A stretch of DNA of 64,000 bases from Planctomycetota bacterium (GTDB lineage: Bacteria; Planctomycetota; B15-G4): the NCBI GenBank assembly GCA_052387675.1, contig JBQTIY010000011.1, positions 212,252-276,251 on the forward strand, read 5' to 3'. A program made the translations under genes and the position numbers. Shown here piece by piece: positions 8,057-59,860 of the stretch; the stretch's first letter is position 1, and each line of letters starts with the position of its first letter. The notes below the pieces were generated by a model that was given only the letters and a program-made list of their open reading frames with translations, was not told where the DNA came from and ran no database searches.

Positions 8057-8422
8057 TCATGAACCTGGCTGCCCGCTCGACGGAACTAGGCCGCTGCGAT
8101 TGCGCGCACCCCAGGTGAGTGCCTCGACGAGCGCGACGGCGCTGAGACTGCGGAGGATGAGCAGACCCAGTGAGTCAGGTGGGCTCGAAGCAAACACCGC
8201 TGCGCCCAAGAGGGCACACGCCAGCCAAGCACTGGCGCTCCGTCGCGTGAGCTGGAGGGTGCCGTCTTCCGCGGCGGTGAAACGCACGACGAGCCACAGA
8301 GCCAGCAGGAACAGGCACACGAAGGCGACGGACATGACGCCTTGCAGTTCAGGAAGAGCCGACAAGGCCGCGACGGAAATGGCAACCATGACCGCAACAG
8401 AGCACCGCCGCTCATACTGCAT
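8057..8422 (-). CDS. hypothetical membrane protein (121 aa)
   Basis: ATG at 8422, shortly after a GTTGGGC core box on the minus strand. 3-4 hydrophobic helices. Confidence 0.5.
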   Translation of the reverse strand: MQYERRCSVAVMVAISVAALSALPELQGVMSVAFVCLFLLALWLVVRFTAAEDGTLQLTRRSASAWLACALLGAAVFASSPPDSLGLLILRSLSAVALVEALTWGARNRSGLVPSSGQPGS

Positions 8423-8440
8423 GGGAGATTCTCTTTCGGT

Positions 8441-8525
8441 GCCCAACGACTCTGTTGCCCAACTGCAGGCCGCGCACGAACCCATCGCGGCGTAGGCAGC
8501 AGCCGGCAACGCCAAGTCGTCTGCT
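8441..8525 (-). repeat. attC-like imperfect inverted repeat
   Basis: GCCCAAC-GACTCTGTTGCC ... GGCAACGCCAAGTC-GTCTGC. The minus strand ends in GTTGGGC (fits GTTRRRY) just before the ORF start at 8422. Confidence 0.5.
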
Positions 8526-8545
8526 GCGTCGAGTCAGCCGGAAGC

Positions 8546-8698
8546 TCATAAGCGAGATGCCATCCGGATGACAAAGACCGCAAGGACCACGAACGTCGAG
8601 AGCTGGCGCCAATCCAAGATGGTGTCGCCGCACTCCCGGCAGTCGCTCCACCAGAGCCGCGCCTCTGCTGAGCACTTGCGACAGCGCAGTAGAGTCAT
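8546..8698 (-). CDS. zinc-ribbon plus TM mini-protein (50 aa, absent from the ORF track)
   Basis: My own translation: MTLLRCRKCSAEARLWWSDCRECGDTILDWRQLSTFVVLAVFVIRMASRL. It has CxxC...CxxC followed by one TM helix. Its ATG overlaps the TGA of the upstream lipoprotein gene (ATGA). Confidence 0.5.
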   Translation of the reverse strand: MTLLRCRKCSAEARLWWSDCRECGDTILDWRQLSTFVVLAVFVIRMASRL

Positions 8699-9177
8699 TG
8701 CTCGCGAGGCCTCCACTCAACACGCGACTTGGCCTTGGATAAGTCGTTCAGGATGATGGCGATGCTCGCTGGGAGCGCTTCCTGAGTGCCGTATGTGCTC
8801 TGCTCGCATTGAGCACGAACAACCCTCACGGAATAGACATCCGGACCGACTGTCCCGCCAGTGTAGAAGAGCTCGCTGCTGTCCCAGTCAACGGCTTCGG
8901 CGGAGCCTGCAAGTTCTGCCCAGGCGCTCGGCTCAATAGTGCCCATCGCTTGCTGAAGTGAGCCGGTGGTGTAGTCGTCGAGATAAGCCTGGCCCCCACG
9001 GCTGAACTGTATGCGCCACACGAAGGGCGGCCGCGGTCCGCCGAAGTCGCAGCCACCTTTGTTGGTCAGTTCAAGCCCGAGAATCGGGCCGAGCTCGATT
9101 GCAGGCTCACCCGATTGATCGCACGAACTCGCGGTTAGTGGCAACAGGATCAACGGGAGCGCCCACAGGATCGCCAT
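8695..9177 (-). CDS. hypothetical lipoprotein (160 aa)
   Basis: ATG at 9177, 9 nt after the GTTAGGC core. MAILWALPLILLPLTASSC lipobox. Confidence 0.6.
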   Translation of the reverse strand: MAILWALPLILLPLTASSCDQSGEPAIELGPILGLELTNKGGCDFGGPRPPFVWRIQFSRGGQAYLDDYTTGSLQQAMGTIEPSAWAELAGSAEAVDWDSSELFYTGGTVGPDVYSVRVVRAQCEQSTYGTQEALPASIAIILNDLSKAKSRVEWRPREQ

Positions 9178-9186
9178 TAGTCTTGC

Positions 9187-9285
9187 CCGCCTAACGACTC
9201 TGCCGCTCAGCAGCGGGTCACAGCCGGTCCTGTCACGCGAAGGGGCGCGCGACAGGCGGCCCGACTGCTGCACCGGCGCGTTAGG
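9187..9285 (-). repeat. attC-like recombination site (99 bp)
   Basis: GCCTAAC-GACTCTGCCGCTCAGCAGCGGGTC ... central stem CCTGTCACGCG/CGCGCGACAGG ... GGCCCGACTGCTGCACCGGCGC-GTTAGGC. The stop codon of the 9281-9832 ORF lies inside the box. Confidence 0.75.
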
Positions 9286-9832
9286 CACCGCCGCCACCAC
9301 TCTCAAGATGCTCCAAGGCGGTTCGCGTCAGGCGAAACCATTCACCGCGACTCTCGTGTCCATAGGCACGATTCTGTTGGGATGCCGCTTCGAGCTTCTC
9401 CTTGACCGGGCTCCGGAACATGTTCGGATGCTCCAGCATGAACCACATGTTGAAAACCTTGAATGTCATGGGCGTCTCGCCGGTGAGCTGCCGATACTCG
9501 TTGACTGAGTCGAATAGTAGTGTCTCGGTTTGCTTTGGATTGAAACGCAGCGTTGCCCCAGAATCTCGGTCGGCGTGCTTGAAGAAGTTATCGGCCTCGT
9601 TGAGCAGGTCGGCCACTTGCTTCTCCGCTCCAGGGACGGCCGATGCAATCATGCGGTCCTTAAGCATCTGGCGGTTAACGCCCGCGGCCTTATTCAGGTC
9701 GCGAAGGATGTTGTTTGCCGCTGATGCTAACGTGTGAAGCGCGACGACATCGCCTTCGCGAAAGAACAGGGCAAGCGCTGCCTCGAGCTGCCGACGTGCA
9801 GCATCAAGCTTGCTGACCAGAAGTGTGGTCAT
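9281..9832 (-). CDS. hypothetical all-alpha protein (183 aa), first cassette of the array
   Basis: ATG start 7 nt after a GTTAGGC box. Visibly lower-GC codon usage. No family recognised. Confidence 0.65.
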   Translation of the reverse strand: MTTLLVSKLDAARRQLEAALALFFREGDVVALHTLASAANNILRDLNKAAGVNRQMLKDRMIASAVPGAEKQVADLLNEADNFFKHADRDSGATLRFNPKQTETLLFDSVNEYRQLTGETPMTFKVFNMWFMLEHPNMFRSPVKEKLEAASQQNRAYGHESRGEWFRLTRTALEHLESGGGGA

Positions 9833-9839
9833 ACCGTGT

Positions 9840-9872
9840 GCCTAACCTGAATCCGGCAGGTCTGCGTTAGCA
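9840..9872 (-). repeat. 33-bp mini inverted repeat with attC core boxes (array boundary)
   Basis: GCCTAAC-CTGAATCCGGCAGGTCTGC-GTTAGCA. Too short for a normal attC, so it may be a truncated site or junction. Confidence 0.4.
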
Positions 9873-10027
9873 CCGCGCGGCGCGCGTTCCCACTGCCTAA
9901 GTCGGCTGTCTGCATGCGAGTTTCCTTGCTGCAAGTCCGCCGCCCGAACGGCGAAGCGGCGATCTTAGCAGAAGGTGCCGAATGCATTCGGCAGACTTGC
10001 CGAGCGCCCTGCCTTTACGATGGCCTC

Positions 10028-23441: not shown

Positions 23442-24242
23442 ATGAGCGATTCGGCCGTCGAACTCAATGCGCGCGTGGTCCATCGCCTCGACCTTACTGC
23501 GCGGCTCTCCGTGGTGCGAGTGGCTCCCGAGGGCTGGAGCCTGCCGCCCTTTTCGGCGGGCCAGTGGGCCACGCTGGGTCTGCCGGAAACTCAGGCTGCG
23601 GCTGGCGCGGCGCCCAAGCTGCTGAAGCGCGTCTACTCCATCGCCTCCGCACCTGGGCGGCCTGAGTTGGAGTTCTTCATCCAGCTCGTCAAGGAGGGCG
23701 AGTTCACCACCAAGCTCTGGCCGCTCGAGAACGGCGACCGGCTGTGGCTCTCCCCCAAGATCGGCGGACACTTCACGCTCGCGCCCGTGCCCAAGACCAG
23801 CCGGATCGTGCTCATCGGCACAGGCACCGGCGTAGCGCCCTTTGTCTCGATGGTGCGCGCCGGCACCTCCGGCGGCCCGGGCCACCGTCCATGGAAGCAC
23901 TGCGTGCTCGTGCACGGCGCGCGTGACCAGAGCGAGCTGGGCTTCCGCGCTGAACTCCACGCCCTGGCGGCCAGCGACACGAGCTTCACCTACTTGCCCA
24001 TGCTCACGCGCGAGCCGCTCGGTTCGGCCTGGACCGGGCGGCGCGGCCGCGTGCAGTCACTGCTCGACGGCGGCGCCTTCGCGCGCTTCACCGGCCAGGA
24101 CTTCGACCCGGCCGACACGCACGTCCTGCTCTGCGGCAATCCCGAGATGATCGACGACATGGAGCGGCGTCTCGCTGCGCTGGGCTTCCGGCATCACACC
24201 CGCGAGCAGGCGGGGAATCTGCATTTCGAGCGGTACTGGTAG
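23442..24242 (+). CDS. fpr: ferredoxin--NADP(+) reductase
   Basis: Motifs RVYSIASAP, LIGTGTGVAPFVSM and CGNPEMIDDM. Confidence 0.85.
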   Translation: MSDSAVELNARVVHRLDLTARLSVVRVAPEGWSLPPFSAGQWATLGLPETQAAAGAAPKLLKRVYSIASAPGRPELEFFIQLVKEGEFTTKLWPLENGDRLWLSPKIGGHFTLAPVPKTSRIVLIGTGTGVAPFVSMVRAGTSGGPGHRPWKHCVLVHGARDQSELGFRAELHALAASDTSFTYLPMLTREPLGSAWTGRRGRVQSLLDGGAFARFTGQDFDPADTHVLLCGNPEMIDDMERRLAALGFRHHTREQAGNLHFERYW

Positions 24243-24390
24243 GCGCGCTCAGTGCGCCGAGGATGGGCGCTGAGTGCGCCCGCGGCGGGGGCTCGGCGGT
24301 GCCGCTCAGACACCTCGCCGACTCGGCCGCTGCGGCCGAGAGGTCGGCTCGGAACTCGCGGCACACCGACACCCCGCCGCGTCGCACATC
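24242..24390 (+). repeat. interspersed structured intergenic repeat, copy C
   Basis: Begins at the fpr stop. It has the same twin hairpins and conserved core as copies A and B. Confidence 0.65.
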
Positions 24391-24433
24391 GCCGCATCTG
24401 CGGGCAGACAACGACGTTCGTACCGTTCAGTGG

Positions 24434-26074
24434 CTACGGCCAGTACTCGTCAGCTCCGATATCCACGCGACCGTACTCTCGACCCTCTCCTTCGATGTCG
24501 TAGGTGGTTAATGCGACAACCGGCGTGATGTCGCCCTTGGCAATGCATGGGGAGCCATACAGAATCGTGAAGTCGCCGGCGCCTGCATTGACGAAATCTG
24601 GATTCTCGTCAATGTTGAAGTACGGGGCCGAGGGCGGGTCAGTGGCACTTCCGAGGCACTCCCAGACGCAATAATCAATAAAGTCCGCTGAGCCCGGATC
24701 CCACTCCAGAGTGCCGTCGACCTGCTGGGTGCCGCCGTTACCGTACACAATCAAGTTCTGCATGTTGGCGTACGTAGTCGAGTCGCCATCGATCCAGAAC
24801 CCGGCGGCGCTGTTGTTCGCGATCGTGTCGCCCACGCTCTTCTGTCCTCCCTCCGAGCTGACGTCCTGGACGCCGCTGATGTGAATGCCAACAGTGTTCT
24901 GAACGATCAGGTTCCCCACCGTGTCCACGCTGATGTAACGACCCGCATCTCCGACGTCCCACGATCCGTAATCCAGGTGAAGCCCAGCGGCTCCATTGCC
25001 CCTGAGGGTGTTTTGCTCGATGTGACCTGTGGAGAAGTAGGCGTAACTGCTCTCGTCGTCATCGGTGTCCACCGTGGCGAGAATTCCGTCGCCAAGGCAT
25101 GCCTTGACCGTGTTGCCGATGATCTCGATCGTCGGCGTCGTGGCAAACCGCACCTGCTTGCCCTCGGCGCCTGCTGCGACGAATTCAATTCCTGTTTCGA
25201 TGCCATGACCCTCATTGCTGAGTGACGAGTCGATCGTGTTGCGCAGGATGAAGGGTGTGAAAATGGCATCAACGGGCACGATTCGACCGTCCCCGGCGAG
25301 CCGGATGCCGAACTCGGCATCGTCATCGCCCTCCAGCCCGATGATGTTCTCGCTGATGATGATGCGAGCCGAGGCATCACCCTCGCCGGTATCGGTCGTC
25401 CGCAGTTCGATTCCGCCGCGAGCCGTCGGCTCGATCCCATTATTGCTGATGTGGAAGGGGCCCTCGGAGTCACCGAGTTGGCCGTCACCAACTTCCAACA
25501 GGACCGAGGGTTGATCGGCACTCTCGCCATCGTTCATCTCACTGCGCTCGAAGTCGCAGGACTCGATGCTGCAGTCCGTCGCTGCGTTGCCGGAATCCAC
25601 GCGAACCAGTACCGCCGCTGGTGGGTCGAACTCTTCCTCATCCTCGGCTAGGAATCTGAGATTCTCGATGATGGTTCCATCGTGGCTCGCGGACGTTGCG
25701 TCGATGAAGACCAAGCCATACGAGCCAGAATCGGGCGGGTCTGCGTGGGCGTCGCCTCCCACCCTGGGCTTGTCACCGTCGTCATATGCCCTGACCCGAA
25801 CTCCACTTGGAATCACTAGGGGCCAGGACTCACCCAGCGCAGTGTTGTACGTGCCTGGCAAAACGACAATCTCGTCGCCGCTCACGGGCTCCCCTTCAAG
25901 CAATGCCTGCGTGATGGTCTCGTATGGATCAGCAAAGGAGCCAGTATGCGGAGCGGTGTCGTTGCTGTCATCGACATAGAAGGTCGTCGGCGTTGGCATG
26001 GCGATCAGGCCAACAGCGACCACGCCGACCCCAAAGCCGCACAGACTGATACCTAACTTGCTTAGTTGACGCAT
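24434..26074 (-). CDS. membrane-anchored right-handed parallel beta-helix (pectin-lyase fold) protein
   Basis: GGAGG SD before the ATG at 26074. N-terminal TM anchor. Repetitive G-N/D-rich beta-helix turns. Visibly lower GC than its neighbours. Confidence 0.7.
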   Translation of the reverse strand: MRQLSKLGISLCGFGVGVVAVGLIAMPTPTTFYVDDSNDTAPHTGSFADPYETITQALLEGEPVSGDEIVVLPGTYNTALGESWPLVIPSGVRVRAYDDGDKPRVGGDAHADPPDSGSYGLVFIDATSASHDGTIIENLRFLAEDEEEFDPPAAVLVRVDSGNAATDCSIESCDFERSEMNDGESADQPSVLLEVGDGQLGDSEGPFHISNNGIEPTARGGIELRTTDTGEGDASARIIISENIIGLEGDDDAEFGIRLAGDGRIVPVDAIFTPFILRNTIDSSLSNEGHGIETGIEFVAAGAEGKQVRFATTPTIEIIGNTVKACLGDGILATVDTDDDESSYAYFSTGHIEQNTLRGNGAAGLHLDYGSWDVGDAGRYISVDTVGNLIVQNTVGIHISGVQDVSSEGGQKSVGDTIANNSAAGFWIDGDSTTYANMQNLIVYGNGGTQQVDGTLEWDPGSADFIDYCVWECLGSATDPPSAPYFNIDENPDFVNAGAGDFTILYGSPCIAKGDITPVVALTTYDIEGEGREYGRVDIGADEYWP

Positions 26075-26142
26075 TGACCTAACCTCCAAGTCATCCGCTG
26101 CCTCATCGGCTCGAAGGATGACTGACTAGGGATTCCCGAAAC

Positions 26143-27924
26143 CTATGGAACTGCGCCATGCAGGATCGTGACATGGCCGCTGTTTGTGATTCCGAAGTCG
26201 TCTGCTGAGGCGACGCCTAGCACGAGCTCGATCGATCCGTCACCGTCCAGGTCGCCGAAGGCGTTGCGCTCGATACCGACATTGCAGAGCGGAACCTTGT
26301 CACTGATTCGGGCAAACGTCGCATGAAACGGCCCAAGTGCGACGAAAGTCATTCCCCCCGCCGTCAGAGAACAACCCTGCATCGGCCCGTCGAAATGGTC
26401 TGAGATCAGCAAATCCGTGATGCCGTCGCCACTCAAGTCTGCTGCCCCTAGCCAACTCCCAAAGTTGCTCTCACCGAAGGGGTTCTCGTAAAGCGATGGT
26501 GGCTTGGTCACCTTGAGATAGGACTCATAGTCCGGTCCGTAGTGAACGAAGGCCCGGTCCCGGTCGTCGTCGATGAGCAGATCCGTCGTGCCATCCCCAT
26601 CGAGATCGCCAACGCCCATGTGAATCCCGAAGGCTGTCCCCACGCCGAGGGGCTCGGGGCACTCGATGGTTCGAAAGAGTGTGAGGTCGGGACCCAAGTA
26701 AACGTGAGCGCTCCCGATGCTTTGCACACCGCCGATGTCGTCACCGCCTGAAGCTTCGAACAAGTCGTCGATCCCGTCGCCGTTGGCGTCGCCAACCGCA
26801 ATGCAGGAGCCAAAGCCGTGCCCGGCCTCGGGCGTAGGATTCGAGACCCAGATCGAGGAGGTGAAGTCGGGCCCCAGCAGAATGTCGACGCGGCCGGCCT
26901 CTCCAAAGCCCCCGACAGAAGCCTTGTTGATGCTGATGGCAACGTCGCCGTGTGAGTCGTTGTTGAAGTCCCCGATGGCGATGGCGTGCCCGTAGCCCGT
27001 GAACTTGATGCCGGTTCCTGGGCTGTGCAGGATCAGCGTGGGGACTCCTGTAGCGAGCGTTGCACCGCTATAGACGTAGAGCTTTCCGGGCAGGCCAGGC
27101 ACGGGCGGCGCACCAGCGGTTTCACCGATGATCAAGTCATCGAGTTCGTCTCCGTCGAGCCGACCGACTGTCATGCCGACACCAAAGAAACCGTAATAGT
27201 GCGGTAGCTCCGAGTAGAGTGCTGTGAAGTTCGTGTAGTCGGGGCCCCAGAGCACATAGGCAGCGCCGGAGTTTTGAATGCCGAGATAGTCCTCGCCCTC
27301 GGCGCAGCCAACGATGTCGCCGAAACCGTCGCCATTGAAGTCACCGACACCGACGGTGCGACCGAAAAGAGCTCGATCGGTGGGGTTGGGGTTGCTAATC
27401 ACCTGGCCCGTAGCCGGTGTCAAGTAGGGCTGGTCGAGCGGGAGCGTGGCCGGATTCGTCAGCGCACCCGGCACGAGCCCTTGCAACACGATGGGAATGC
27501 CGGAGAACAGCGGGTCAAGCAGCGGCAGCGTGATCGGCATGTCGATGCGGCCGCTCGGCGGAATGGCACCAAGAGCCAGGACGTTTAGGACTTGGCCGAT
27601 GTAGAACGGCCCCTTGGGTGTCCAGACGGGCGTGATGAGCGGCTGCAGGCCGTAGAGCAGCGCCGTGAAATGCCCCGGCGTGCCGGAGAAGTGCAGCGTC
27701 AGTTCGCCTTCAGAGAAGGGCTCACCCTGGATCTGCAGCAGAGGGGCATCCTGCGCCCTGCTGGCGGGAACTAGGGCACTAAACACCACGAGAAGCGCCG
27801 CCCACAGTCCACGTTGCACGAAGTCTCGCCGCAGCGACGGAGGCCCCCCCGCCTTCCCTTGCGGAGCACCCATGACGGAAAGCCTACAGCAATCGGCTCT
27901 CGACTGCTCCTGGGAAAGCATCAT
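26143..27924 (-). CDS. secreted FG-GAP repeat (integrin-alpha-like beta-propeller) protein
   Basis: Seven repeats of the type GDFNGDGFGDIV, GRLDGDELDDLI, GDANGDGIDDLF, GDLDGDGTTDLL, and others. SLRRDFV lies ahead of the hydrophobic segment and is Tat-like. The start is uncertain (27924 or 27873). Confidence 0.75.
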   Translation of the reverse strand: MMLSQEQSRADCCRLSVMGAPQGKAGGPPSLRRDFVQRGLWAALLVVFSALVPASRAQDAPLLQIQGEPFSEGELTLHFSGTPGHFTALLYGLQPLITPVWTPKGPFYIGQVLNVLALGAIPPSGRIDMPITLPLLDPLFSGIPIVLQGLVPGALTNPATLPLDQPYLTPATGQVISNPNPTDRALFGRTVGVGDFNGDGFGDIVGCAEGEDYLGIQNSGAAYVLWGPDYTNFTALYSELPHYYGFFGVGMTVGRLDGDELDDLIIGETAGAPPVPGLPGKLYVYSGATLATGVPTLILHSPGTGIKFTGYGHAIAIGDFNNDSHGDVAISINKASVGGFGEAGRVDILLGPDFTSSIWVSNPTPEAGHGFGSCIAVGDANGDGIDDLFEASGGDDIGGVQSIGSAHVYLGPDLTLFRTIECPEPLGVGTAFGIHMGVGDLDGDGTTDLLIDDDRDRAFVHYGPDYESYLKVTKPPSLYENPFGESNFGSWLGAADLSGDGITDLLISDHFDGPMQGCSLTAGGMTFVALGPFHATFARISDKVPLCNVGIERNAFGDLDGDGSIELVLGVASADDFGITNSGHVTILHGAVP

Positions 27925-27929
27925 GGATG

Positions 27930-27938
27930 CCCCCCCCC
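27930..27938. repeat. homopolymeric C9 tract (G9 on the coding strand)
   Basis: Read directly from the sequence. It lies 5 nt upstream of the ATGATG at 27924/27921. A second C7 tract lies at 27844-27850. Confidence 0.9.
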
Positions 27939-28279
27939 GCGTAACCTGACATTGCGGTCGCCAGAGCGGCTGCGGGTGACGCACTTTGCCCCAGGCCAGC
28001 GGGCGCCACCCCTGGCGTTGTCGCTGCCTTCGTCATGAAAAGGCTCCCGAAGCCGAAACGGCTAAGCCCACTTCGCACAAGGCGGGTAAGCGAACCGTCA
28101 CGAGCGCTGGTGTAATCCCACTCCCCAAATTTCCGCAAGGGGGAAAATTCGTGGGAGGCGAAGTTGTTATCGACTTTCTCGCTCCAGCCGGTCGTTCCCT
28201 GATCAGGTCGGCCGCGGAACGACGCTGGCGCTTTGACCCGCAGTGAAACCCCGTGGCCGCCGCAGAGCGGAGCCGCGAC

Positions 28280-29068
28280 TCAGCCGCCTGGCGCGCGGTC
28301 GGCGGGCGTGAGGCGGCTGTGCCGCTTGCGGACGTCGAAGGTGCGCAGCGCCGCTTCGAGCTGGATGCGCACGCTCATCTTGGACTCGCCGGCGGCGCGA
28401 TCGGGAAACTCGATCGGGACTTCGCGCAGCACGTAGCCGAGGCGCGCGGCGACGTAGGCCATCTCGACTTGGAAGACGTAGCCATTGCTGTGGATGCGCC
28501 GGCCGAGATCCATGCCGAGCAAGGTCTGGCGGCGCCAGAGGCGGAAGCCGCCGGTCGCGTCGCGCAGGCCGATGCTCAGGATGGCGCGTACGTAGAGGCT
28601 GTTGGCGAACCAGGAGAGCAGCTTGCGCCACCAGGCCCAGTCGGGGTCCACGCTGCCGCCCGGCGCGAAGCGGCTGCCCAGCACCATGTCTGCACCCGGC
28701 AGGGCGGCGAGCAAGTCGTGCAGGTACTCCGGCTGGTGGCTGAAGTCGCAGTCCATCTGCAGGATGAGGTCGGCGCCCTCGGCGAGCGCGCGCGCGAAGC
28801 CGGCCAGGTAGGCCTTGCCCAGGCCCTCCTTGCCGCGGCGGTGCAGCACGGCCACGCGGCCAGGATGACGCAGGGCAAGTTGGTCGGCGAGTTGGCCGGT
28901 GCCGTCGGGCGAGGCATCGTCCACGACGAGGATGGACAGCACGGCGGGCTCGGCCGGGTCGGTGGGCGCGGTGAGGCGCAGCGCCAGGAGCGCGGCGACC
29001 ATGCGCTCCAGGTTGTCGGCCTCGTTGTAGGTCGGCAGCACGACGGTGATGCGGAGCGGCTGCGCCAT
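28280..29068 (-). CDS. GT2 polyprenol-phosphate mannosyltransferase-like (Ppm1/DPM1-like)
   Basis: Sequence VVLPTYNEADNLERMV...VVDDASPDGTGQLA...DCDFSHQPE. Confidence 0.85.
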   Translation of the reverse strand: MAQPLRITVVLPTYNEADNLERMVAALLALRLTAPTDPAEPAVLSILVVDDASPDGTGQLADQLALRHPGRVAVLHRRGKEGLGKAYLAGFARALAEGADLILQMDCDFSHQPEYLHDLLAALPGADMVLGSRFAPGGSVDPDWAWWRKLLSWFANSLYVRAILSIGLRDATGGFRLWRRQTLLGMDLGRRIHSNGYVFQVEMAYVAARLGYVLREVPIEFPDRAAGESKMSVRIQLEAALRTFDVRKRHSRLTPADRAPGG

Positions 29069-29176
29069 GTCGCGGTCGCCGACTCTAGCATCCGCTCGCG
29101 GCGCTCGGCGCGCGGGAAGTCGTGCGGGTCATTCCGCACGGGGGCCGGGCGCCTCCGGCTGATATCTTTGGCCTCG

Positions 29177-30529
29177 ATGCGCCTGCGCACCACGATCCTT
29201 CTCGCCGCGGCCGGCACGGGACTGCTGCTCTGGGCGCTGCTCGCCACGGAGCAGGCCGGTGTGGGGACGCGCGCCGACGGCAAGCCGGCCTACCCCTTCG
29301 TTCTGGAGGACCAGGCCGACCGCTGGGTCTACCAGCAGCGCGGCCGCTGGCTGCCCTCCGAGCGCGAGCCCTACGTGGAGGAGCACTCGGAGTATCCGCA
29401 GCTCGCCACCTGGATGTTCGGGCTGCCCTACCTGTTCATGGAGCACTCGGTGCCGGTGGGCCGCGCGCAGACGTCGGCCGAGTTCACGGCCGCGCGCGAG
29501 GACTCGCGGGCCTACTTCGACCGGCACCACGTGTCCATGGCCCTGGGCTATTTCGCACTGCTGGCGCTGACGGCCGCGGTGCTGCGGCAGCTCGGCCACT
29601 CGCCCGGCTACGCGCTCTTGCTGCTGCTGCCCGGCACGGCGTATTTCTCCTTCAATCGTTTCGATGCCTGGCCGGCCGCCTTCGTGGCGCTGGCCTGCCT
29701 GCTGCAGTTCCGCGGGCGGCGCAACGGCGCGGCGGCGGCGCTGGCTCTCGGCGCGATGATGAAGTGGTACCCCGCACTGTTGCTGCCGCTCTTTCTGGCC
29801 CACAATCTTTGGAGTGAGCACGACGCCAAAGGTCGTGGCGGCGTGTCGGTGGGCCGGTTGTTCGCGGCGCTGCCGCGCGCCGTACTCGTGCCGGGACTGG
29901 TGGCCGGTGCTGTGATCACGGCCATCCTCAGTGTCAGCTACGTCGGCGGCGGCTGGGAGGCGGTCACACACGTCTACAGCCATCACGCCGGGCGCGTGCA
30001 CAACCCGCCTTCGCTGGCGGCGGCGATCTTGGAGCCCTGGCGCTGGGGCCTGCTGCCGCTCGAGAGCTTCCCGCGCGTGTACCAGTGGCTCACGGTGCTG
30101 CAGTTCCTGCCGGCCGTGCTGCTGGCCCTTGTGCCGATCCGCAGCCGGACGGCACTGCTCTGGGCCTGCCTGGCCGTCGTGGTGGGCTTTGCCGAGTTCG
30201 GCAAGGTCTTCTCGCCGCAGTGGATCTGCTGGGTCTCGCCGCTGGCCCTGCTGCTGGCGCCCGGCCGGCGCACCCTGCTCGGCCTCATCGTGGCGCTCGA
30301 ACTGCTCATCTACCTGCAGATCCCGCTGCTCTTCTACTCGCACATGACCACTCCGGAGGCGGCCGCGGCCCTGGCGCGCGGCCAACCGGCCATTCCGCCG
30401 GAAGCCTTTTTCTGGTGGGTCAGCGATGGGCGCCATCTGCTGCTCTTTGGGCTGTGGGCGTGGAGTCTGGCTGCTTTCCTGCGTACCGTGTCGCGCGGCG
30501 CCGAGGCCCCCGCCCCCGCCCTGCGCTAG
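29177..30529 (+). CDS. GT-C fold integral membrane glycosyltransferase (DUF2029/GT87-like)
   Basis: ATG at 29177. Polytopic. HSEYPQLA and MKWYPALLLPLF motifs. The upstream third of the 758-aa track ORF is antisense shadow of the GT2 gene. Confidence 0.6.
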   Translation: MRLRTTILLAAAGTGLLLWALLATEQAGVGTRADGKPAYPFVLEDQADRWVYQQRGRWLPSEREPYVEEHSEYPQLATWMFGLPYLFMEHSVPVGRAQTSAEFTAAREDSRAYFDRHHVSMALGYFALLALTAAVLRQLGHSPGYALLLLLPGTAYFSFNRFDAWPAAFVALACLLQFRGRRNGAAAALALGAMMKWYPALLLPLFLAHNLWSEHDAKGRGGVSVGRLFAALPRAVLVPGLVAGAVITAILSVSYVGGGWEAVTHVYSHHAGRVHNPPSLAAAILEPWRWGLLPLESFPRVYQWLTVLQFLPAVLLALVPIRSRTALLWACLAVVVGFAEFGKVFSPQWICWVSPLALLLAPGRRTLLGLIVALELLIYLQIPLLFYSHMTTPEAAAALARGQPAIPPEAFFWWVSDGRHLLLFGLWAWSLAAFLRTVSRGAEAPAPALR

Positions 30530-49275: not shown

Positions 49276-51717
49276 ATGGCGCCCTCCTCGTTCGGGAGTC
49301 GCCTCGTGCTTCGCTCCGCTCTCGCCCTGCCTCTGCTGAGTCTCGCGGCGCTGGCCGCCCTCGCCGCGCCCGCCTCCGCCAGCGACCTCAAGCTCAACAA
49401 CCAAGTCGCGCTGACCGCCGCGGTCGGCGCGCCGCTGACCATGAAGCTCACCGGGCCCGCGCTCAAACCGGCCATCATCCTGGTGGACATCGGCCCCGGC
49501 CCCGCGACGATCGGCGGCGAGTCCGTGCCGCTGGCCTTCTCGCCCTTCGCGCGCATCATCGCTTCGGGCTTCACGTCGAGTCTCGGCGTCTACAACGTGC
49601 CGGGCTCCATTCCGGACGTGGGCGACCTGGGCGGACTGCAAGTGCACTTCGTGGGTGTCGTGCTGGACAGCGCCGACCCCAATGGCAAGGACTGGAGCAA
49701 CGGCGCCTCGCTCTCCATCACCTTGAGCGTGGGCGCCGGCCCGCCGACGGGCGGACTCGTGGGCCGCGTCACGACCTTCGACGGCAGCGCCGCCACGGGC
49801 ATCGACGACGCGCTGCCCTTCGGCACCAGCCTGAACTGGACCGTGCTGCAGAAGCCGGCCGGCAGCAGCGCCACGCTCACCGGCGCCAATCTCCTCACGC
49901 CCACGCTCAAGCCGGATCAGCCCGGTGATTACTTGCTGCGCTCCACGCTCACCTCGCACACGACGAGCGTCAGTTCCGACACGACGCTGCATGCTTGGCG
50001 CGTGACGCTCACCGGCCTGCCCGATGGCAGCATTCTCAGCACGGGCAGCGTGCTCATGCAGGGCCTCATCGAGGGCCCGCCCGTCGCCGCCGTGAAAGTG
50101 GACGGCGTGCCGGTCTTTGTCGCGGCCAACACGTTCGGGCCAGTGGCGCGCAGTTTCGCGCCCGGAGCGATCACGCTGCCGGTGGTCGTCGAACTGCAGC
50201 ACGCCGACGGCTCGATCGCCCGCCAGCGCCTGAGTTTCGTGCAGGGCAGCGCCGCGGCCGTGGGCGCGCCCTCTGCCAACGCCCTCTCAGCGCGCCTCAA
50301 CCAAGCCGCACTGGATCAGATGGAGGCACTCGGCGCGACGGAACTCCAGGGCGCCAACATCCAGGGCCCGCTGCTGGCCATGCCGCCGCAGCTCGTGGCC
50401 AATGACGAAGGCATCTTCGGCTTCACGATCTTCTCTGCGTGGGTCGACTTCACCGGCATCAGCTACAACCCCAACATCCAGCTCGCGCTGGTGCCCAGCG
50501 CCTCCGGCATCCTCGCCACGGTCACGATTCACAACGTAGTGGCCACCTTTGACACCTGGGGCGAAGTGCTCGAGGTGGACTACAACCTCGACGGCTACAT
50601 CTCCACCTCGCCCACCGTCATCACCGCCACGCTCGTGGGCTCGGCGGCCGGCGGCCAGATCCAGGTGGCGGTCACGAATGTGCAGGTGGACCGCCAGAAC
50701 TTCGACTTCGAGCTGAACGGCTTCCTCGGCACCGTGGCCGAAGTCTTCGTCATCGAGAGCGCCGTGAAAGAGGATGTCGAAGCCATTGTGGCGCAGACCA
50801 TCTCGCAGGAACTCGGCCCGGCCATCCAGGAGATCCTGGGCAGCTTCGTGCTGGCCGGCAACCTCTTCGAGACGCTCGACGTGGACGTGAACATCGCCGC
50901 GCCGATCACCGGCGTGGTGCATGACACCTCGGGTGTGACGATCCGCCTCGCCAGCACGGCGGGCGTGGGCGTGGCCGAGCCCGGCTCGCCCGTTGTGCCT
51001 TTCTATCGCGCCACGCCGGCTGCCGGCGCGGCCATGGGCGCCAACACCCCCGGCGGTCAGAGCTACGGCGCCGGCCTGGCCCTGGCCGACGACTTCGCCA
51101 ATCAGGTGCTGGCCGCGGCCACCGGCGCGGGCCTGCTCGACGGCGACCTCACCACGCTCGTGCCTTCCACCGGCAAGGTCGCGATCAACTTCGTCACCGA
51201 AGAACTCGCCCTGCTCTTCCCCAACTGCGGCTTCGACCTCTTCCCCGACGGCACGCCGATCACGCTGCGCGCGCACGGCACAGTGCCGCCCATCCTGCGG
51301 CTCACGCCCGGCGGCCCCGCCATGGGCGTCATTGACATCGCCGGCTTGCAGGTGGCCTTCGAGGCACCGGGCGCGGCGGGCCCCGTTCCGCTGCTCTACG
51401 TGACGGCCGACGGCAGCGCCACGCTCGACGTTGCCGCCGGCGGCGAGGGCACGCTTTCGGCGACGCTCGTGGACGGCACGCTCGTGGTGCGCGCCCTCGG
51501 CGCCTTCCCGGGCGCGAACTACGCCACGATCGATGTGAATGCCGGCCTGCTCGGCACGGTGCTGGAACAGGCCCTGCCGCAGATTGTCGAGGCGCTGGGC
51601 GGCATACCGCTGCCCTCGCTCGAGGCGCAGGGCCTGGGCCTTTCGGCCTCTTCCGTGGCGATTCTCGGCGGTGGCGCGCACTTGGCGGCCTTCGGGCAAC
51701 TCGTCGTCACGCCCTGA
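49276..51717 (+). CDS. large secreted hypothetical protein (813 aa)
   Basis: Signal peptide ...AALAAPASA. Ig/PKD-like N-terminal part. Long beta-rich C-terminal part of unknown family. Confidence 0.7.
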   Translation: MAPSSFGSRLVLRSALALPLLSLAALAALAAPASASDLKLNNQVALTAAVGAPLTMKLTGPALKPAIILVDIGPGPATIGGESVPLAFSPFARIIASGFTSSLGVYNVPGSIPDVGDLGGLQVHFVGVVLDSADPNGKDWSNGASLSITLSVGAGPPTGGLVGRVTTFDGSAATGIDDALPFGTSLNWTVLQKPAGSSATLTGANLLTPTLKPDQPGDYLLRSTLTSHTTSVSSDTTLHAWRVTLTGLPDGSILSTGSVLMQGLIEGPPVAAVKVDGVPVFVAANTFGPVARSFAPGAITLPVVVELQHADGSIARQRLSFVQGSAAAVGAPSANALSARLNQAALDQMEALGATELQGANIQGPLLAMPPQLVANDEGIFGFTIFSAWVDFTGISYNPNIQLALVPSASGILATVTIHNVVATFDTWGEVLEVDYNLDGYISTSPTVITATLVGSAAGGQIQVAVTNVQVDRQNFDFELNGFLGTVAEVFVIESAVKEDVEAIVAQTISQELGPAIQEILGSFVLAGNLFETLDVDVNIAAPITGVVHDTSGVTIRLASTAGVGVAEPGSPVVPFYRATPAAGAAMGANTPGGQSYGAGLALADDFANQVLAAATGAGLLDGDLTTLVPSTGKVAINFVTEELALLFPNCGFDLFPDGTPITLRAHGTVPPILRLTPGGPAMGVIDIAGLQVAFEAPGAAGPVPLLYVTADGSATLDVAAGGEGTLSATLVDGTLVVRALGAFPGANYATIDVNAGLLGTVLEQALPQIVEALGGIPLPSLEAQGLGLSASSVAILGGGAHLAAFGQLVVTP

Positions 51718-55595: not shown

Positions 55596-56318
55596 GTGAA
55601 TCCTTTGCCGAATCATGCGGCCCTGCCAGGGGCCGCCGCAAGCGTCGAGGCGCCCTTCGCGCTCTTGCTGCGCTCCTCCCTGGAAGCGCTGCGCGCACGG
55701 CCTGGCCTGCGCGCGCGCCTCAGCAACTGGCCGGCCCTGCGCAGTGACGCGCGGCAGCGCTGGGAGCACCTTTGTGAGGCGCGGCGCTTTGCCCAGGAGT
55801 ACGCCGACGACGCACTGAGCTGGCTCTTGCCGCACGTCAACAGCCCGGCTGTGCAGGCGCGGGACGGCTTCGTGCATCCCGAGGCCGACCCGCGCGGCGA
55901 TCCGCTAGGACGGCTGATCTGCGGCGGCTGGCTGCGGCCCGGCGAAGAGCCGCTGCTGGGACGCGCGCTCGTGGAGTTTGTGCGCAAGGCGCTCGATGAG
56001 CCGGCCGGTCTGTGGCCGGCCTGCGATGCACTCGCGGCGGCGCCCGGCGGCCGCGGCCTGAACGCCGCACTCGTCTCGCCGATCCTGCACGCTCTGCAGC
56101 CTGATCGCTTCGTGCTCGGCAGCGCCTCGCTGCGCGGGCTGCTCTCTGCGCTGGAGGGCAGCGACTTCGGGCCCACGCTCGACGACTACCCCGCCTGCAA
56201 CGCGGCCGCGCAGCGCCTGCTCTTGGCCAATGCGGCGCTCATGCGCGTCGAGCCGTACAGCGATCACCATCCCAGTGATCTGCTCGATGCCATGGCGGAG
56301 TGGGCGCTGTCACCCTGA
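55596..56318 (+). CDS. hypothetical protein, start uncertain
   Basis: This is the part of the 393-aa track ORF not explained as antisense of the thioesterase gene. No family recognised. Confidence 0.3.
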   Translation: MNPLPNHAALPGAAASVEAPFALLLRSSLEALRARPGLRARLSNWPALRSDARQRWEHLCEARRFAQEYADDALSWLLPHVNSPAVQARDGFVHPEADPRGDPLGRLICGGWLRPGEEPLLGRALVEFVRKALDEPAGLWPACDALAAAPGGRGLNAALVSPILHALQPDRFVLGSASLRGLLSALEGSDFGPTLDDYPACNAAAQRLLLANAALMRVEPYSDHHPSDLLDAMAEWALSP

Positions 56319-56392
56319 CGAGACCGCGGCCCGGCGCGGCACCAGCCCTTGACCGCGCGAAAGCTGCTGCAGGCTCTGTTATCGTGGCCGCG

Positions 56393-56929
56393 ATGGCACC
56401 CCTCACCGCCCGGCAGATCGGCGGCGCCCTGCTGCGCGACGCAACGCCCGCTGACGCCGCCGCGCTGGCCGCGATCTACAACCACTACATCCTGCACACA
56501 GTGGTCACCTTCGAGGAGCAGGTCATCGACGCGGCCGAAATGGCTCGCCGACTCGCCGCGGTCATGGCTCAGCACCCCTGGCTCGTGCTGGAGGCCGACG
56601 GCGAACTGCTCGGCTACGCCTATGCCGGCACGTGGAAGCCGCGCTCGGCCTATCGCTTCACGGTCGAGACGACGGTCTATCTCGCAGCGCAGGCCGTGGG
56701 CGCGGGCCTCGGCTCACGGCTCTACGAGGCGCTTCTGCTCGAACTGCGCCGACGCGGCCTGCACGTCGCCATCGGCGGCATCACGCTGCCCAATGCGGCC
56801 AGCGTCGCGCTGCACGAGAAGTTTGGCTTTCGCAAAGTGGCCCACTTCAGCGAGCAAGGCTGGAAGTTCGGCCAGTGGCTCGACGTGGGCTACTGGCAGC
56901 TCACTCTGAGCAAAGGCCCGCCGGCCTAA
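56393..56929 (+). CDS. GNAT family N-acetyltransferase (phosphinothricin-acetyltransferase-like)
   Basis: Sequence ...IYNHYILHTVVTFEE...GYAYAGTWKPRSAYRFTVETTVYL...GLGSRLY... Confidence 0.85.
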   Translation: MAPLTARQIGGALLRDATPADAAALAAIYNHYILHTVVTFEEQVIDAAEMARRLAAVMAQHPWLVLEADGELLGYAYAGTWKPRSAYRFTVETTVYLAAQAVGAGLGSRLYEALLLELRRRGLHVAIGGITLPNAASVALHEKFGFRKVAHFSEQGWKFGQWLDVGYWQLTLSKGPPA

Positions 56930-57309
56930 GGCTCTTCGGCCAAGCCGCGCTGCTCGCCCACTGCGGCGAGCAAACCGGCGCCGTCGAAGAGCAGCATGAG
57001 CAGGTCGCTGCGCTGCGAGCCAATGCTGCGCTCATAGATCGGCAGCAGCGGCACGAGCAGCAGGCGCGAGCCGCGCAGCTCGTCCTGCCGGTAGAGAAAG
57101 ATCTCGCCGTCGGTTTGGCGGCGCACGGAAACGGGCGGACCGAGCAGGGCCAGCGCTTCGGCCTTCGTGGTGCGCCCTACAACAAGCCCCACGGAGGTGG
57201 GCACGTCGCGGCCGCTCGTTTGGTGTGTGAGGTAACAGGCCGGCAGCGACGCCGCGAGCAGCACGGCCAACGCCAAGCACTGGGTCCGCCACCGCGCACG
57301 TGCTGTCAT
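56926..57309 (-). CDS. BamE/SmpA_OmlA-like lipoprotein paralog 5 of 5 (127 aa)
   Basis: Lipobox SLPAC. Motif GRTTKAEALALLGPP. ATGA overlap with the upstream paralog. Confidence 0.65.
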   Translation of the reverse strand: MTARARWRTQCLALAVLLAASLPACYLTHQTSGRDVPTSVGLVVGRTTKAEALALLGPPVSVRRQTDGEIFLYRQDELRGSRLLLVPLLPIYERSIGSQRSDLLMLLFDGAGLLAAVGEQRGLAEEP

Positions 57310-57737
57310 CGGCTCACCGCCTCTTGCGCAGCAGAGCCCGACGCGCCGGCAGCCGAAGCTGGCGGCGCCGGCGCATCAAGCAGCCGCCCCTGCCGGTCGA
57401 AGCGCAGGAGCAGCAGGCCGTCGGTTTGCCGGCCGCGCACATCGAGATAGATCGGGAAGCGCGGCAAGCCCACCAGGCCGCTGTGCACGTTGAGGATGTC
57501 CAACGCGGTGTGCCGCAGGCGGTAGACGAAGAGTTCGCCGTCGGCCAGGGCCACGATCTCCTGCGGCGCCCCGAGCTGCGTCAGGACTTCGCGCTTGGTG
57601 CCGAGTTGCGGCGCTGTCGCGAGGAGCGACTCGATCTCGGCCGGGTCCTGGCCTGCATCAAAGCGCGTCTGCGAGTAGAGCGCCGCTCCGCAGCCAGGCA
57701 GGAGCAGCGCGGCCCCGAGCACCAGCGCCGCCTTCAC
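57306..57737 (-). CDS. BamE/SmpA_OmlA-like lipoprotein paralog 4 of 5 (143 aa)
   Basis: Lipobox LLPGC. Motif GTKREVLTQLGAP. GTGA overlap with the upstream paralog. Confidence 0.65.
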   Translation of the reverse strand: MKAALVLGAALLLPGCGAALYSQTRFDAGQDPAEIESLLATAPQLGTKREVLTQLGAPQEIVALADGELFVYRLRHTALDILNVHSGLVGLPRFPIYLDVRGRQTDGLLLLRFDRQGRLLDAPAPPASAAGASGSAAQEAVSR

Positions 57738-58171
57738 GAGGCGTCGTCCCGGAAGGCGAAGTGGCGCACGCGGCCGTCCTCTTCGAAGAAGATCGTGAGC
57801 GTGCGGCTCTCGATCTCGGCATCCACCCAGAGGAAGAGCACCGGAAAGAAGTAGACGTTGGCGGCGATGCGCACGTGCTGCCAGGTCAGGGCGTGGTCGT
57901 CGAGCTGAGCGGGCAGTGCGCCGGCGCCGAGCGGTGTGCCGGTGCGCGTGACGATGGCGCGCAGATCCGTGGCGTAGACGCCGGTCGGCGGGCCGAGGCT
58001 CGCCAGCAGTTCCGCGCGCGTGCTGGTGCCCGGCACGATGGCCGCCACTTGCTCGGCCGTCAGGCGCACGCCGGCCTCATCCCGCAGCACGACGCAGCCA
58101 GCCGGCAGCAGCAGCAGCGCGAGCAGCAGCAGACGCGCAAGCACCAGAAGGCGCGGCAGGGCGGCGCTCAT
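57734..58171 (-). CDS. BamE/SmpA_OmlA-like lipoprotein paralog 3 of 5 (145 aa)
   Basis: Lipobox LPAGC. Motif GTSTRAELLASLGPP. ATGA overlap with the upstream paralog. Confidence 0.65.
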   Translation of the reverse strand: MSAALPRLLVLARLLLLALLLLPAGCVVLRDEAGVRLTAEQVAAIVPGTSTRAELLASLGPPTGVYATDLRAIVTRTGTPLGAGALPAQLDDHALTWQHVRIAANVYFFPVLFLWVDAEIESRTLTIFFEEDGRVRHFAFRDDAS

Positions 58172-58638
58172 CGCGACTCTCGCAGCGACTGGCTCGTCGT
58201 GACTTCACGGACCACGTCGAAGGCATCGAAGAAAATCACCACGCGCTCGCTGCGCGTGTCCACCGTGACGACGTTGAGCAAGAGCAGGATGGTGCCGCGC
58301 GCCTGCAAGTCATCGCGCTGCCAGGTGAGCACATTCTCGGCGCGATGGGCGAAGGAGAGTGCGCCGGCGATGCGCAGCTCGTCGTCGGACATGGCCGCAA
58401 CGGCTTCGGGACGCCGGTGCTCGTCGGGCGGGCCCAGCAGGGCCAGCACTTCGGCCTTGGTCGTGCGGCCCGGCACGATGCGCCCCAGATCCGCGGCCGG
58501 CAGGTGCGGGCCGATGCTGCCCGAGCCGCCCACGAAAAGGCAGCCCGGCACGAGCGCCAGGGCGACTAGGCACACGACGAGCACGCCGGCCGGTGGACAA
58601 GAGCGCGCCGGCGGGCGGCTGCGAGTCGGCGCGCTCAT
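58168..58638 (-). CDS. BamE/SmpA_OmlA-like lipoprotein paralog 2 of 5 (156 aa)
   Basis: Lipobox LVPGC. Motif GRTTKAEVLALLGPP. The ATG at 58638 forms an ATGA overlap with the upstream stop. Confidence 0.65.
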   Translation of the reverse strand: MSAPTRSRPPARSCPPAGVLVVCLVALALVPGCLFVGGSGSIGPHLPAADLGRIVPGRTTKAEVLALLGPPDEHRRPEAVAAMSDDELRIAGALSFAHRAENVLTWQRDDLQARGTILLLLNVVTVDTRSERVVIFFDAFDVVREVTTSQSLRESR

Positions 58639-59057
58639 TCCTCGCCCTGCCACGACCAGCTCAGCAGGCGGCCCTGCCCATCGAAGAAGGCCACCAGCCG
58701 GTCGCCGCTGGACTCCACGCGCGAATGCGAGAAGAGCGTCAGGACGGGCAGAAACTCAAAGCGCCTCTCCACGCGCGTGTCGTGCGCCCAGGTGTGGACG
58801 CGCCGGCCGAGCAGCTCGCGCTCGTCGAGCACGCGGAGCGCCACCGGGTCCTGAGCCCGCAGCGCGGCCAGCGGCACAGGCCGCGCCTCATCGTCCGGTG
58901 GACCAAGCAGCGCACAGACCTGAGCGTAGTCGTGCACACCCGGCTGCAACGCAGCCAGCGCAGCCTCGTCAGGCAAGGGCTCGCCAAAGCGCACCGTGAG
59001 CACCGTGCAGCCCGAAAGCAGCAACGCCAGCCCAGCCGCCAGCACACGAGTTCTCAT
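58635..59057 (-). CDS. BamE/SmpA_OmlA-like lipoprotein paralog 1 of 5 (140 aa)
   Basis: Lipobox LLSGC. Motif VHDYAQVCALLGPPD. C-terminal FFDGQGRLL as in the other paralogs. Confidence 0.6.
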   Translation of the reverse strand: MRTRVLAAGLALLLSGCTVLTVRFGEPLPDEAALAALQPGVHDYAQVCALLGPPDDEARPVPLAALRAQDPVALRVLDERELLGRRVHTWAHDTRVERRFEFLPVLTLFSHSRVESSGDRLVAFFDGQGRLLSWSWQGEE

Positions 59058-59110
59058 CGCGGCGATGATAACTGCTGGAGGGTCCCGGGCCGGCGTGTTA
59101 CGACTCCGCG

Positions 59111-59860
59111 ATGCAAGACCGGCCCACGCGCACCAGCGGCTTCTCGCGCCGCGACGTGGTCTTCGCCGTCCTGGGCGCCTTCTTCCTCACGAACGCGATC
59201 ACCGCCGAAATGGTCGGCGGCAAGATCATCCACGTGGCGCCCGAGGGCTTCACCATCTGGGGCGCGCGGCCGGCCGCCACCGTGGGCGTCTTCCTCTGGC
59301 CCTTCGTCTTCGTGACCACCGACCTGGTCAACGAGTACTTCGGCACGCGCGGCGTGCGGCGGCTGACGCTGCTCACCGTGGGCATGATCGTTTACGTCTT
59401 CATTCTGCTGCAGCTCGCGCGCATGGTGCCCTCGGCCGGCTTCCCGAACACGGTCGACGACGCCTCCTTCAATCGCGTCTTCGGGCAGAGCCAGTGGATC
59501 ATCGTCGGCTCGCTGGCGGCCTTCCTGGTGAGCCAGCTCGTGGACGTCTTCGTCTTCCAGAAGCTGCGCCGCGCAACCGGCGCGCGCCTGCTCTGGCTGC
59601 GCGCCACGGGTTCCACGGTGATCAGCCAAGTGCTGGACAGCGTCATCGTGCTCTGGATCGGCTTGGCCATCCCGCTCGGCTGGAACGTGCACCAGTTCGC
59701 GCAAGTCGCCGCGCCGAACTACCTCATCAAGCTGGTAGAGGCGCTGGCCATGACGCCGGTGATCTACTTCATGCACTGGCTGGTCGAGAAGTACCTCGGC
59801 CGCGCACAGGCCGAAGAACTTGCCGAGCAGGCCGCGCGCAGCTCGCGCTCAGCCGTCTAG
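59111..59860 (+). CDS. yhhQ: queuosine precursor transporter (VUT/DUF165 family)
   Basis: Sequence ...WPFVFVTTDLVNEYFGTRG... and ...RATGSTVISQVLDSVIV... are typical of YhhQ. Confidence 0.8.
   Translation: MQDRPTRTSGFSRRDVVFAVLGAFFLTNAITAEMVGGKIIHVAPEGFTIWGARPAATVGVFLWPFVFVTTDLVNEYFGTRGVRRLTLLTVGMIVYVFILLQLARMVPSAGFPNTVDDASFNRVFGQSQWIIVGSLAAFLVSQLVDVFVFQKLRRATGARLLWLRATGSTVISQVLDSVIVLWIGLAIPLGWNVHQFAQVAAPNYLIKLVEALAMTPVIYFMHWLVEKYLGRAQAEELAEQAARSSRSAV

Follow-up and report, generated by a model that had tools for sequence, protein, structure and literature searches.

A conserved operon of five coupled genes for divergent, predicted lipoproteins of the BamE-like fold in uncultured Planctomycetota

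We analyzed a stretch of 64,000 nucleotides of contig JBQTIY010000011.1 (assembly GCA_052387675.1) from a Planctomycetota bacterium, called the window below, and describe here five consecutive genes on its minus strand, numbered 1 to 5 in the direction of transcription. The five genes form an operon in which each gene overlaps the next one by four nucleotides (nt). Their products are homologous to each other and, as judged from sequence profiles and structural models, belong to the BamE-like fold superfamily as divergent members, without being part of the curated BamE family or orthologs of BamE. Arrays with the same number and the same order of genes were found in other Planctomycetota, and the comparison of the sequences indicates that the array is ancestral. 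We propose, with moderate confidence, that the five proteins make a hetero-oligomeric, lipid-anchored periplasmic complex that would act as a docking or scaffold module. The BamE fold itself is known, and so are small BamE-like lipoproteins as a general kind. What appears to be new is a family without a Pfam or NCBIfam model, the structural features added to the fold, and the fixed, ordered and coupled operon of five paralogs.

An operon of five tandem BamE (SmpA_OmlA)-like lipoprotein genes had been proposed earlier from inspection of the letters alone (the sequence-only reading). All five open reading frames (ORFs), coding for 127-156 amino acids (aa), were indeed present at the coordinates given in Table 1, and the four 4-nt junction overlaps (ATGA in three cases, GTGA in one) were confirmed on the minus strand. 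The GC content by codon position was of the coding type in each of the five genes, with the third position (GC3) at 0.83-0.90 and the second position (GC2) at about 0.5. Because of this composition, and because orthologs exist elsewhere, we consider the five ORFs to be real genes rather than chance ORFs of a sequence with 70% GC. The proteins were annotated only as ‘hypothetical’ (locus tags ACT4PU_11860-11880).

Two plus-strand ORFs antisense to the array, 57300-57854 (184 aa) and 57761-58999 (412 aa), were rejected as spurious. The former has a GC3 of 0.82, and a simple gene call based on GC3 picked it in place of the real gene 4. Long antisense ORFs over the array present a risk of mis-annotation in a genome with 70% GC.

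Since the five genes are bounded by a divergent Vut_1 gene on one side and a convergent GNAT gene on the other, they make up a self-contained transcription unit. No sigma-70-like promoter site was found upstream of the array. The terminator scan for the operon was uninformative, as all the terminator-like matches were situated within coding sequence. The stop codons of gene 5 (minus strand) and of the GNAT gene (plus strand) overlap at 56926-56929; therefore, no intergenic room is left for a terminator on either strand.

Table 1. Genes of the array, their junctions and the adjoining features (coordinates in the window).
Feature	Coordinates	Strand	Description
Gene 1	58635-59057	minus	140 aa; long-type BamE-fold lipoprotein (predicted); lipobox LLSGC, Cys17
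Gene 2	58168-58638	minus	156 aa from ATG 58638, alternative GTG at 58653; long-type BamE-fold lipoprotein (predicted); lipobox LVPGC, Cys33; best-conserved position; orthologs P0006-P0015
Gene 3	57734-58171	minus	145 aa; long-type BamE-fold lipoprotein (predicted); lipobox LPAGC, Cys26
Gene 4	57306-57737	minus	143 aa, GTG start; short-type; lipobox LLPGC, Cys16; most divergent paralog; C-terminal tail Ala/Pro/Ser-rich; orthologs P0180-P0188
Gene 5	56926-57309	minus	127 aa; short-type; lipobox SLPAC, Cys25; signature LGPPVSVRRQxDG
Gene 1/gene 2 stop/start overlap	58635-58638	minus	ATGA, read base by base
Gene 2/gene 3 stop/start overlap	58168-58171	minus	ATGA, read base by base
Gene 3/gene 4 stop/start overlap	57734-57737	minus	GTGA, read base by base
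Gene 4/gene 5 stop/start overlap	57306-57309	minus	ATGA, read base by base
Divergent gene 1/Vut_1 spacer	59058-59110		53 bp; presumed shared promoter or operator region
Vut_1 (YhhQ-type) transporter gene	59111-59860	plus	Pfam PF02592, E=3.6e-43; divergent, context only
GNAT acetyltransferase gene	56300-56929	plus	convergent to the array

Related loci were searched for with orthologs of the position-2 protein. Gene-context look-ups and locus scans revealed nine complete five-gene arrays, namely those of the window, L001/L002/L022, L003/L004/L014, L007/L008, L009/L012, L010/L011, L013, L020/L021 and L023 (loci joined by a slash count as one array). One further array, L024, runs off the end of its contig. 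All the named sources of the arrays were metagenome-assembled genomes of uncultured Planctomycetota. We observed in an all-against-all protein comparison, which covered seven arrays, that the best match in each other array was situated at the same position in 210 cases out of 210. The mean identity of orthologs was 39, 52, 46, 40 and 51% for positions 1 to 5, respectively; the paralogs inside the window’s array were about 30% identical, in line with the high mutual divergence that had been noted for them. The same seven arrays have 28 junctions, of which 21 were -4 overlaps and three were -1 overlaps, while the rest were gaps of 2-11 nt, two of which would turn back into -4 overlaps if an alternative GTG were used as the start. 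The sequence-only reading would have lost its ground if the paralogs had not been conserved together in relatives; the survey of the distribution showed the ordered five in nine lineages. In the literature, we found no paper describing these proteins, such an array or a BamE in Planctomycetes.

The pattern recognized in the sequence-only reading, that of BamE/SmpA_OmlA, was borne out as far as the fold is concerned, but not as membership in the curated family or as orthology to BamE. When each paralog was compared with the Pfam BamE model (PF04355, profile length 71 positions, gathering score 23.2 bits), weak matches were obtained for genes 1-3, all below the gathering score, and no match was obtained for genes 4 and 5. 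For gene 1 (E=0.11, 12.8 bits) and gene 2 (E=0.075, 13.3 bits), BamE was one of two to three weak matches, while for gene 3 it was the top match with 19.8 bits. The alignments of genes 1 and 2 and of the best stretch of gene 3 fell on profile positions 4-30, which correspond to the N-terminal helices. A comparison of the five proteins with the named lipoprotein families of NCBIfam (OsmE, BamE equivalogs and others) produced no match above the cut-off; gene 1 had only an 11-bit signal-peptide match to LptM.

A profile built from 23 sequences of the family gave nine matches among the PDB sequences, all of them to BamE or OmlA, with the best E=8.6e-4. In the alignment of this profile with BamE, the helix-turn motif ‘...V...LG.P’ and the C-terminal ‘L.F...G.V’ line up; a part of the score came from the signal peptide and the lipobox. 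Profiles made for the mature parts of positions 4 and 5 found no BamE match among the PDB sequences, and an hhalign comparison of the same profiles with one E. coli BamE sequence (partly confirmed by the PDB matches of the family profile) gave a non-significant probability of 1.5%. At the sequence level, the connection with BamE thus comes from positions 1-3 and from the family profile that contains the signal peptide. Genes 4 and 5 are tied to BamE via their clear homology to the other positions. Against position 2, hhalign gave a probability of 96.6% (E=4.7e-10) for gene 4 and of 98% (E=1.9e-13) for gene 5; the predicted structure provides one more tie for gene 4. A transitive link was seen as well, with 63 of the 139 wider-family representatives matching PF04355 at E<=0.01 and multi-domain relatives scoring above its gathering score.

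Structures were modeled with AlphaFold2 for genes 3 and 4, while genes 1, 2 and 5 are linked to these models by profile homology. The gene 3 model had a predicted local distance difference test score (pLDDT) of 84.1 and a predicted template modeling (TM) score of 0.68; the gene 4 model, made with its own orthologs, had a pLDDT of 82.9. A Foldseek search of the PDB with the gene 3 model returned E. coli BamE chains as all of the top 15 matches (probability 0.96-1.00, target-normalized TM score 0.58-0.69, E from 6e-3 to 0.27). The sole other weakly credible match was the N-terminal domain of TpgA, 9vnj_B, with a probability of 0.57 and a target TM score of 0.52; all the remaining matches had TM scores of 0.2 or lower. 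For the gene 4 model, the top match was BamE 7ri5_E (probability 0.99, target TM score 0.59), and all the others were below 0.26. BamE was, therefore, the only credible match for both models, and the fold that had been expected was indeed detected.

In both models, two helices are followed by three β-strands (the order α-α-β-β-β). We distinguish a ‘long’ type (positions 1-3), in which helix 2 and strand 1 are separated by an inserted segment of ~30 residues that was modeled with low confidence, and a ‘short’ type (positions 4 and 5). Strands 1 and 2 of the models are 16-20 residues long, and the β-strands have roughly twice the length of those in BamE. The tip of the hairpin formed by these strands carries, at positions 1, 3 and 5, a hydrophobic stretch of 11 residues centered on a proline. 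At position 3 the tip has the near-invariant pattern V(A/T/Y)FFP(V/I/L)LF.WV, with a mean Kyte-Doolittle value of about 2.3. This hydrophobic hairpin was also seen in single-gene relatives from other phyla and is, therefore, a trait of the family and not of the array.

The N-terminal and internal motifs ascribed to the proteins in the sequence-only reading were also found. Each of the five lipobox strings was present in its protein. The helix motif, with the consensus PGRTTKAEVLALLGPP and variants of it, was seen in all five, though gene 1 deviates with PGVHDYAQVCALLGPP, and so was the C-terminal FFD..G motif, with a small deviation in gene 3 (FFEEDG). A hydrophobic N-terminus ending in ..G/A-C was observed in five of five array proteins and in 40 of 40 orthologs examined, and the lipobox Cys was at least 90% conserved among 139 relatives. 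We regard lipidation of the five proteins as likely. The lipoboxes of window genes 2-5 and of their orthologs in L001-L020 are mostly of the form (L/A)-P-G-C, with a proline at position -2.

The residues directly after the lipobox Cys are predicted to form a strand, and models and alignments together show that they are conserved in a position-specific manner. The signature is CL(F/V/Y)VGGS at position 2 (in five of eight arrays), C(V/I)VLxDxAGV at position 3, CxGALxS at position 4 and CSIxHxTxG at position 5.

The structural matches raise the question of whether the array proteins work as BamE does. They resemble E. coli BamE (PDB 5d0o, 7tt0, 7ri5) in being small, predicted lipoproteins with an N-terminal lipobox Cys and with two helices followed by three β-strands. 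They differ from it in the conserved strand directly after the Cys, in the hydrophobic, proline-centered tip of the hairpin and in the ~30-residue insertion of positions 1-3, as well as in being five ordered paralogs where BamE is a single gene. One explanation of the array is that its products are accessory lipoproteins of the β-barrel assembly machinery (BAM), i.e., functional equivalents of BamE on BamA/BamD that perhaps replace missing BamB/C/E. It agrees with the fact that BamE chains of BAM complexes were the only credible structural matches and BamE the sole family that the family profile matched in the PDB; moreover, other lineages have evolved BAM lipoproteins of their own, e.g., BamF (PMC3359395). 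Still, besides the scores below the Pfam threshold and the lack of NCBIfam matches reported above, the taxonomic range argues against this explanation: the genuine BamE, which associates with BamD, was found only in α-, β- and γ-proteobacteria (PMC3359395), whereas the array was found, in the window and in all named relatives, in Planctomycetota. Lipoproteins that are not part of BAM, OsmE among them, are picked up by the BamE model as well (PMC3359395), and the fold is used outside BAM, both in TpgA (bioRxiv 10.64898/2026.01.22.700529) and in toxin-immunity proteins (PMC12419801). In addition, no link to BamA or BamD was seen at the array loci, with no bamA or bamD gene in the window or in the flanks of the related loci examined. 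We consider a BAM accessory role improbable.

The family extends beyond the five-gene arrays. Only 23 relatives came up in a word-indexed search of 5.8 billion clusters. When 1.84 billion representatives were searched exhaustively with a profile, 2,699 matches were obtained at E<=1e-3, of which 237 had E<=1e-10 and 8 had E<=1e-30. Since strong profile matches are few and weak ones are many, the close family is rare and sits within a sizeable superfamily. The wider superfamily is almost entirely metagenomic, and the members that we looked up were metagenomic singletons. Two-gene loci were observed at L005 6001-6778 (also L006) and at L015 4923-5877. In these versions, a long-type gene comes first and a short one second, and the two overlap by 14 or 17 nt; the short gene is clearly position-5-like in L005 and weakly so in L015. 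The L005 pair directly follows a radical SAM gene, and the L015 pair is divergent from ABC-transporter genes. Such pairs may be ancestral. Still more distant relatives are single genes and occur in other phyla. The likely history, as we infer it, leads from a single gene to a pair of a long and a short gene, and further to three long and two short genes.

Some relatives are single-chain tandem BamE-type lipoproteins: P0138 (529 aa, about five domains), P0089 (308 aa, three domains) and P0128 (316 aa, three domains). All three exceed the Pfam BamE threshold, and the first domain of P0089 is of the long type of the window family. As proposed for the array, several BamE-type domains would act together in these chains; unlike in the array, the domains are fused, most of them are canonical BamE (above the Pfam threshold), and they are not orthologs of the five positions. 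Another candidate relative, P0054 (4066 aa, 11 ‘stretches’), was rejected, being an Ig/NHL/FG-GAP repeat protein with no BamE match.

We suggest the following mechanism. One operon would give rise to five different lipoproteins, three long and two short, that diverged long ago and have a mature size of about 11-14 kDa. Each subunit would have a signal peptide ending in the lipobox Cys, the position-specific strand after it, a domain of the BamE type with two helices and three strands, and an elongated β1-β2 hairpin with a hydrophobic proline-centered tip. The 4-nt overlaps couple translation, and the five proteins would therefore be made in near-equal amounts. The five lipid-anchored subunits may then join in one defined hetero-oligomer on a periplasm-facing membrane surface, which would offer another component of the envelope a docking site or a scaffold close to the membrane.

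Four features point to the assembly of the five proteins. The number, the order and the coupling of the genes stayed fixed over a large divergence, as would fit obligate subunits, while independent paralogs are expected to gain and lose genes. Each position holds its own conserved signature. The hydrophobic hairpin needs a partner or lipid in which it is buried. Finally, the natural relatives with three to five BamE-type domains per chain show that the BamE fold does serve in multi-copy assemblies. The presence of the hairpin in single-gene relatives fits a route from a homo-oligomer to a hetero-oligomer of paralogs. The docking role is proposed because BamE, on BamA/BamD, and TpgA, on the AtaA barrel, do likewise.

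The same five proteins could instead be independent, sub-functionalized paralogs, each with its own partner or its own condition of use, which are co-transcribed for convenience and share no common complex. The low identity within the window’s array, the position-specific signatures, the occurrence of the wider family as single genes in other phyla and the existence of two-gene versions all agree with this explanation. On the other hand, arrays of independent paralogs normally vary in copy number, whereas here exactly five genes in the same order were found in nine arrays, with perfect same-position orthology in the arrays compared and with the coupling kept. Coupled, near-equimolar synthesis would also have no obvious purpose for proteins with unrelated functions. 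We regard independent paralogs as unlikely, though as an explanation to be taken seriously.

Several observations weigh against a hetero-oligomeric docking complex. The E-values of the Foldseek matches were modest and all above 1e-3. A proline at -2 or -3 makes four of the five lipoboxes non-canonical; the classical lipobox pattern (PROSITE PS51257) excludes such a proline, though the specificity of Lgt may be relaxed in this lineage. The arrays come from a narrow syntenic lineage, in which the conservation of gene order may be in part plain inheritance. Neither bamA or bamD nor any other envelope-biogenesis gene was found nearby in the 64-kb window. Finally, since two-gene versions exist at L005 and L015, the number five is not universal for the family.

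A bolder form of the hetero-oligomeric reading is that the hairpins and the post-Cys strands build a heteropentamer partly embedded in the outer membrane. It would be an envelope machine specific to Planctomycetota that arose by duplication from a homo-oligomeric single-gene ancestor. Such a heteropentamer could have the shape of a small multi-subunit β-structure or platform and might, for example, stand in for the BAM accessory lipoproteins in this lineage or form a new pore or anchor. We rate it as speculative and, in this full form, improbable.

Besides BamE, other known systems with this fold can be compared with the array. OsmE and other non-BAM lipoproteins of the BamE fold are likewise small and are weakly detected by the BamE model. 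The OsmE-type proteins match the model at around 1e-5 to 1e-8, are not BAM subunits and may be present in more than one copy per genome (PMC3359395). The array proteins, in contrast, have no NCBIfam match to any named family, and OsmE-type genes have not been described as ordered, translationally coupled arrays. The N-terminal domain of TpgA, the partner of AtaA (9vnj_B), is a BamE-like periplasmic domain, to which the gene 3 model had its weaker match. It docks on the periplasmic side of an outer-membrane β-barrel and likely binds the barrel of AtaA (bioRxiv 10.64898/2026.01.22.700529). TpgA, however, often has an OmpA peptidoglycan-binding domain and adjoins an autotransporter gene; neither was found in the five proteins or among the nearby genes.

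Polymorphic-toxin loci commonly contain divergent immunity paralogs in tandem arrays. In principle, the five genes could be such an array, coding for periplasmic immunity proteins or inhibitors against toxins or enzymes that target the envelope. In favor of this possibility, a membrane-anchored BamE-like family, periplasmic like the one proposed here, is the most widespread type of immunity protein for lipocone toxins (PMC12419801). Yet those immunity proteins are described as fast-evolving and are linked to toxin genes, whereas the array five show stable one-to-one orthology with fixed number and order at 39-52% identity, and no toxin, secretion-system or Rhs/PAAR-type gene adjoined the array in any locus examined. 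An immunity function is, in our view, very unlikely.

So far, the BamE fold has been seen as a small membrane-proximal adaptor, i.e., as a BAM subunit, an autotransporter helper or a toxin-immunity protein. If the hetero-oligomeric reading is true, five different lipoproteins of this fold in an obligate set would represent a new use of it, because the number, the order and the coupling were kept through deep divergence. It would also provide a rare handle on the envelope architecture of Planctomycetota, where little is known of the factors for outer-membrane biogenesis other than BamA. A definition of the family would be useful in itself because no Pfam or NCBIfam model covers these proteins. 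The value is limited for now, as the carriers are all uncultured and nothing points to a specific function.

The most consistent neighbor of the array is the Vut_1 gene. It is divergent and adjoins gene 1 in six of the eight arrays examined upstream (the window, L001, L003, L007, L010 and L021); arrays L009 and L013 and both two-gene loci are without it. The spacer between the two divergent genes contains the motif GTA(A/G)CA(C/T)GCC followed, after ~18 nt, by CCAGCAGT. An alignment showed that the motif is partly conserved at other array loci, with motif-bearing spacers at about 5454-5533 in L001, about 5462-5584 in L003 and about 754-922 in L010. The motif may serve both transcription units as an operator, or it may be a non-sigma-70 promoter. 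A preQ1 or another riboswitch in the spacer was considered and rejected, as there was no Rfam match at either the gathering or a permissive threshold and no covariation in a four-locus alignment.

E. coli YhhQ transports queuosine precursors. By its position, the array might encode an accessory of the adjoining YhhQ-type transporter, e.g., an envelope module that captures or delivers its substrate. The frequent adjacency and the short spacer with its partly conserved motif speak for such a role. However, the loci without Vut_1 speak against it, and so does the absence from the spacer of a preQ1 riboswitch, of any other Rfam element and of covariation; moreover, the genes are divergent and thus Vut_1 and the array are not co-transcribed. 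The adjacency may also be simply inherited, since the neighborhood is generally syntenic in the lineage, with Vut_1 and the genes described next all conserved nearby. For this reason we gave little functional weight to gene adjacency in general, and we see the transporter-accessory role as highly improbable.

On the other side of the array, most relatives have a convergent gene whose product combines a domain of ~240 aa without a family name (N-domain) with AAA_5 in one chain; a 4HBT thioesterase gene comes next. The N-domain/AAA_5 genes are situated at 7589-9343 in L001, 7743-9683 in L003, 6380-7324 in L007, 3241-4803 in L010 and 2753-4555 in L020; the L007 gene retains only the N-domain. The window keeps the ~240-aa domain at about 55653-56312 (35-39% identity by tblastn, no Pfam match), while the separate GNAT gene stands in place of the AAA_5 part. 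The AAA_5 neighbor was set aside as a partner of the array and attributed to synteny, given that it is convergent, of a cytoplasmic type and replaced in the window.

Elsewhere in the window, no tRNA or Rfam elements were found. Two plus-strand ORFs, 28253-30529 (758 aa) and 49276-51717 (813 aa), have GC3 of the coding type and no Pfam domain at E<=1e-5. The GC content is lower at 1-10000 and 24000-28000 (0.62-0.65 compared to about 0.70); along with several ORFs that have no Pfam match, these stretches encode DUF2071, DUF5329, DUF1565/β-helix and FG-GAP proteins.

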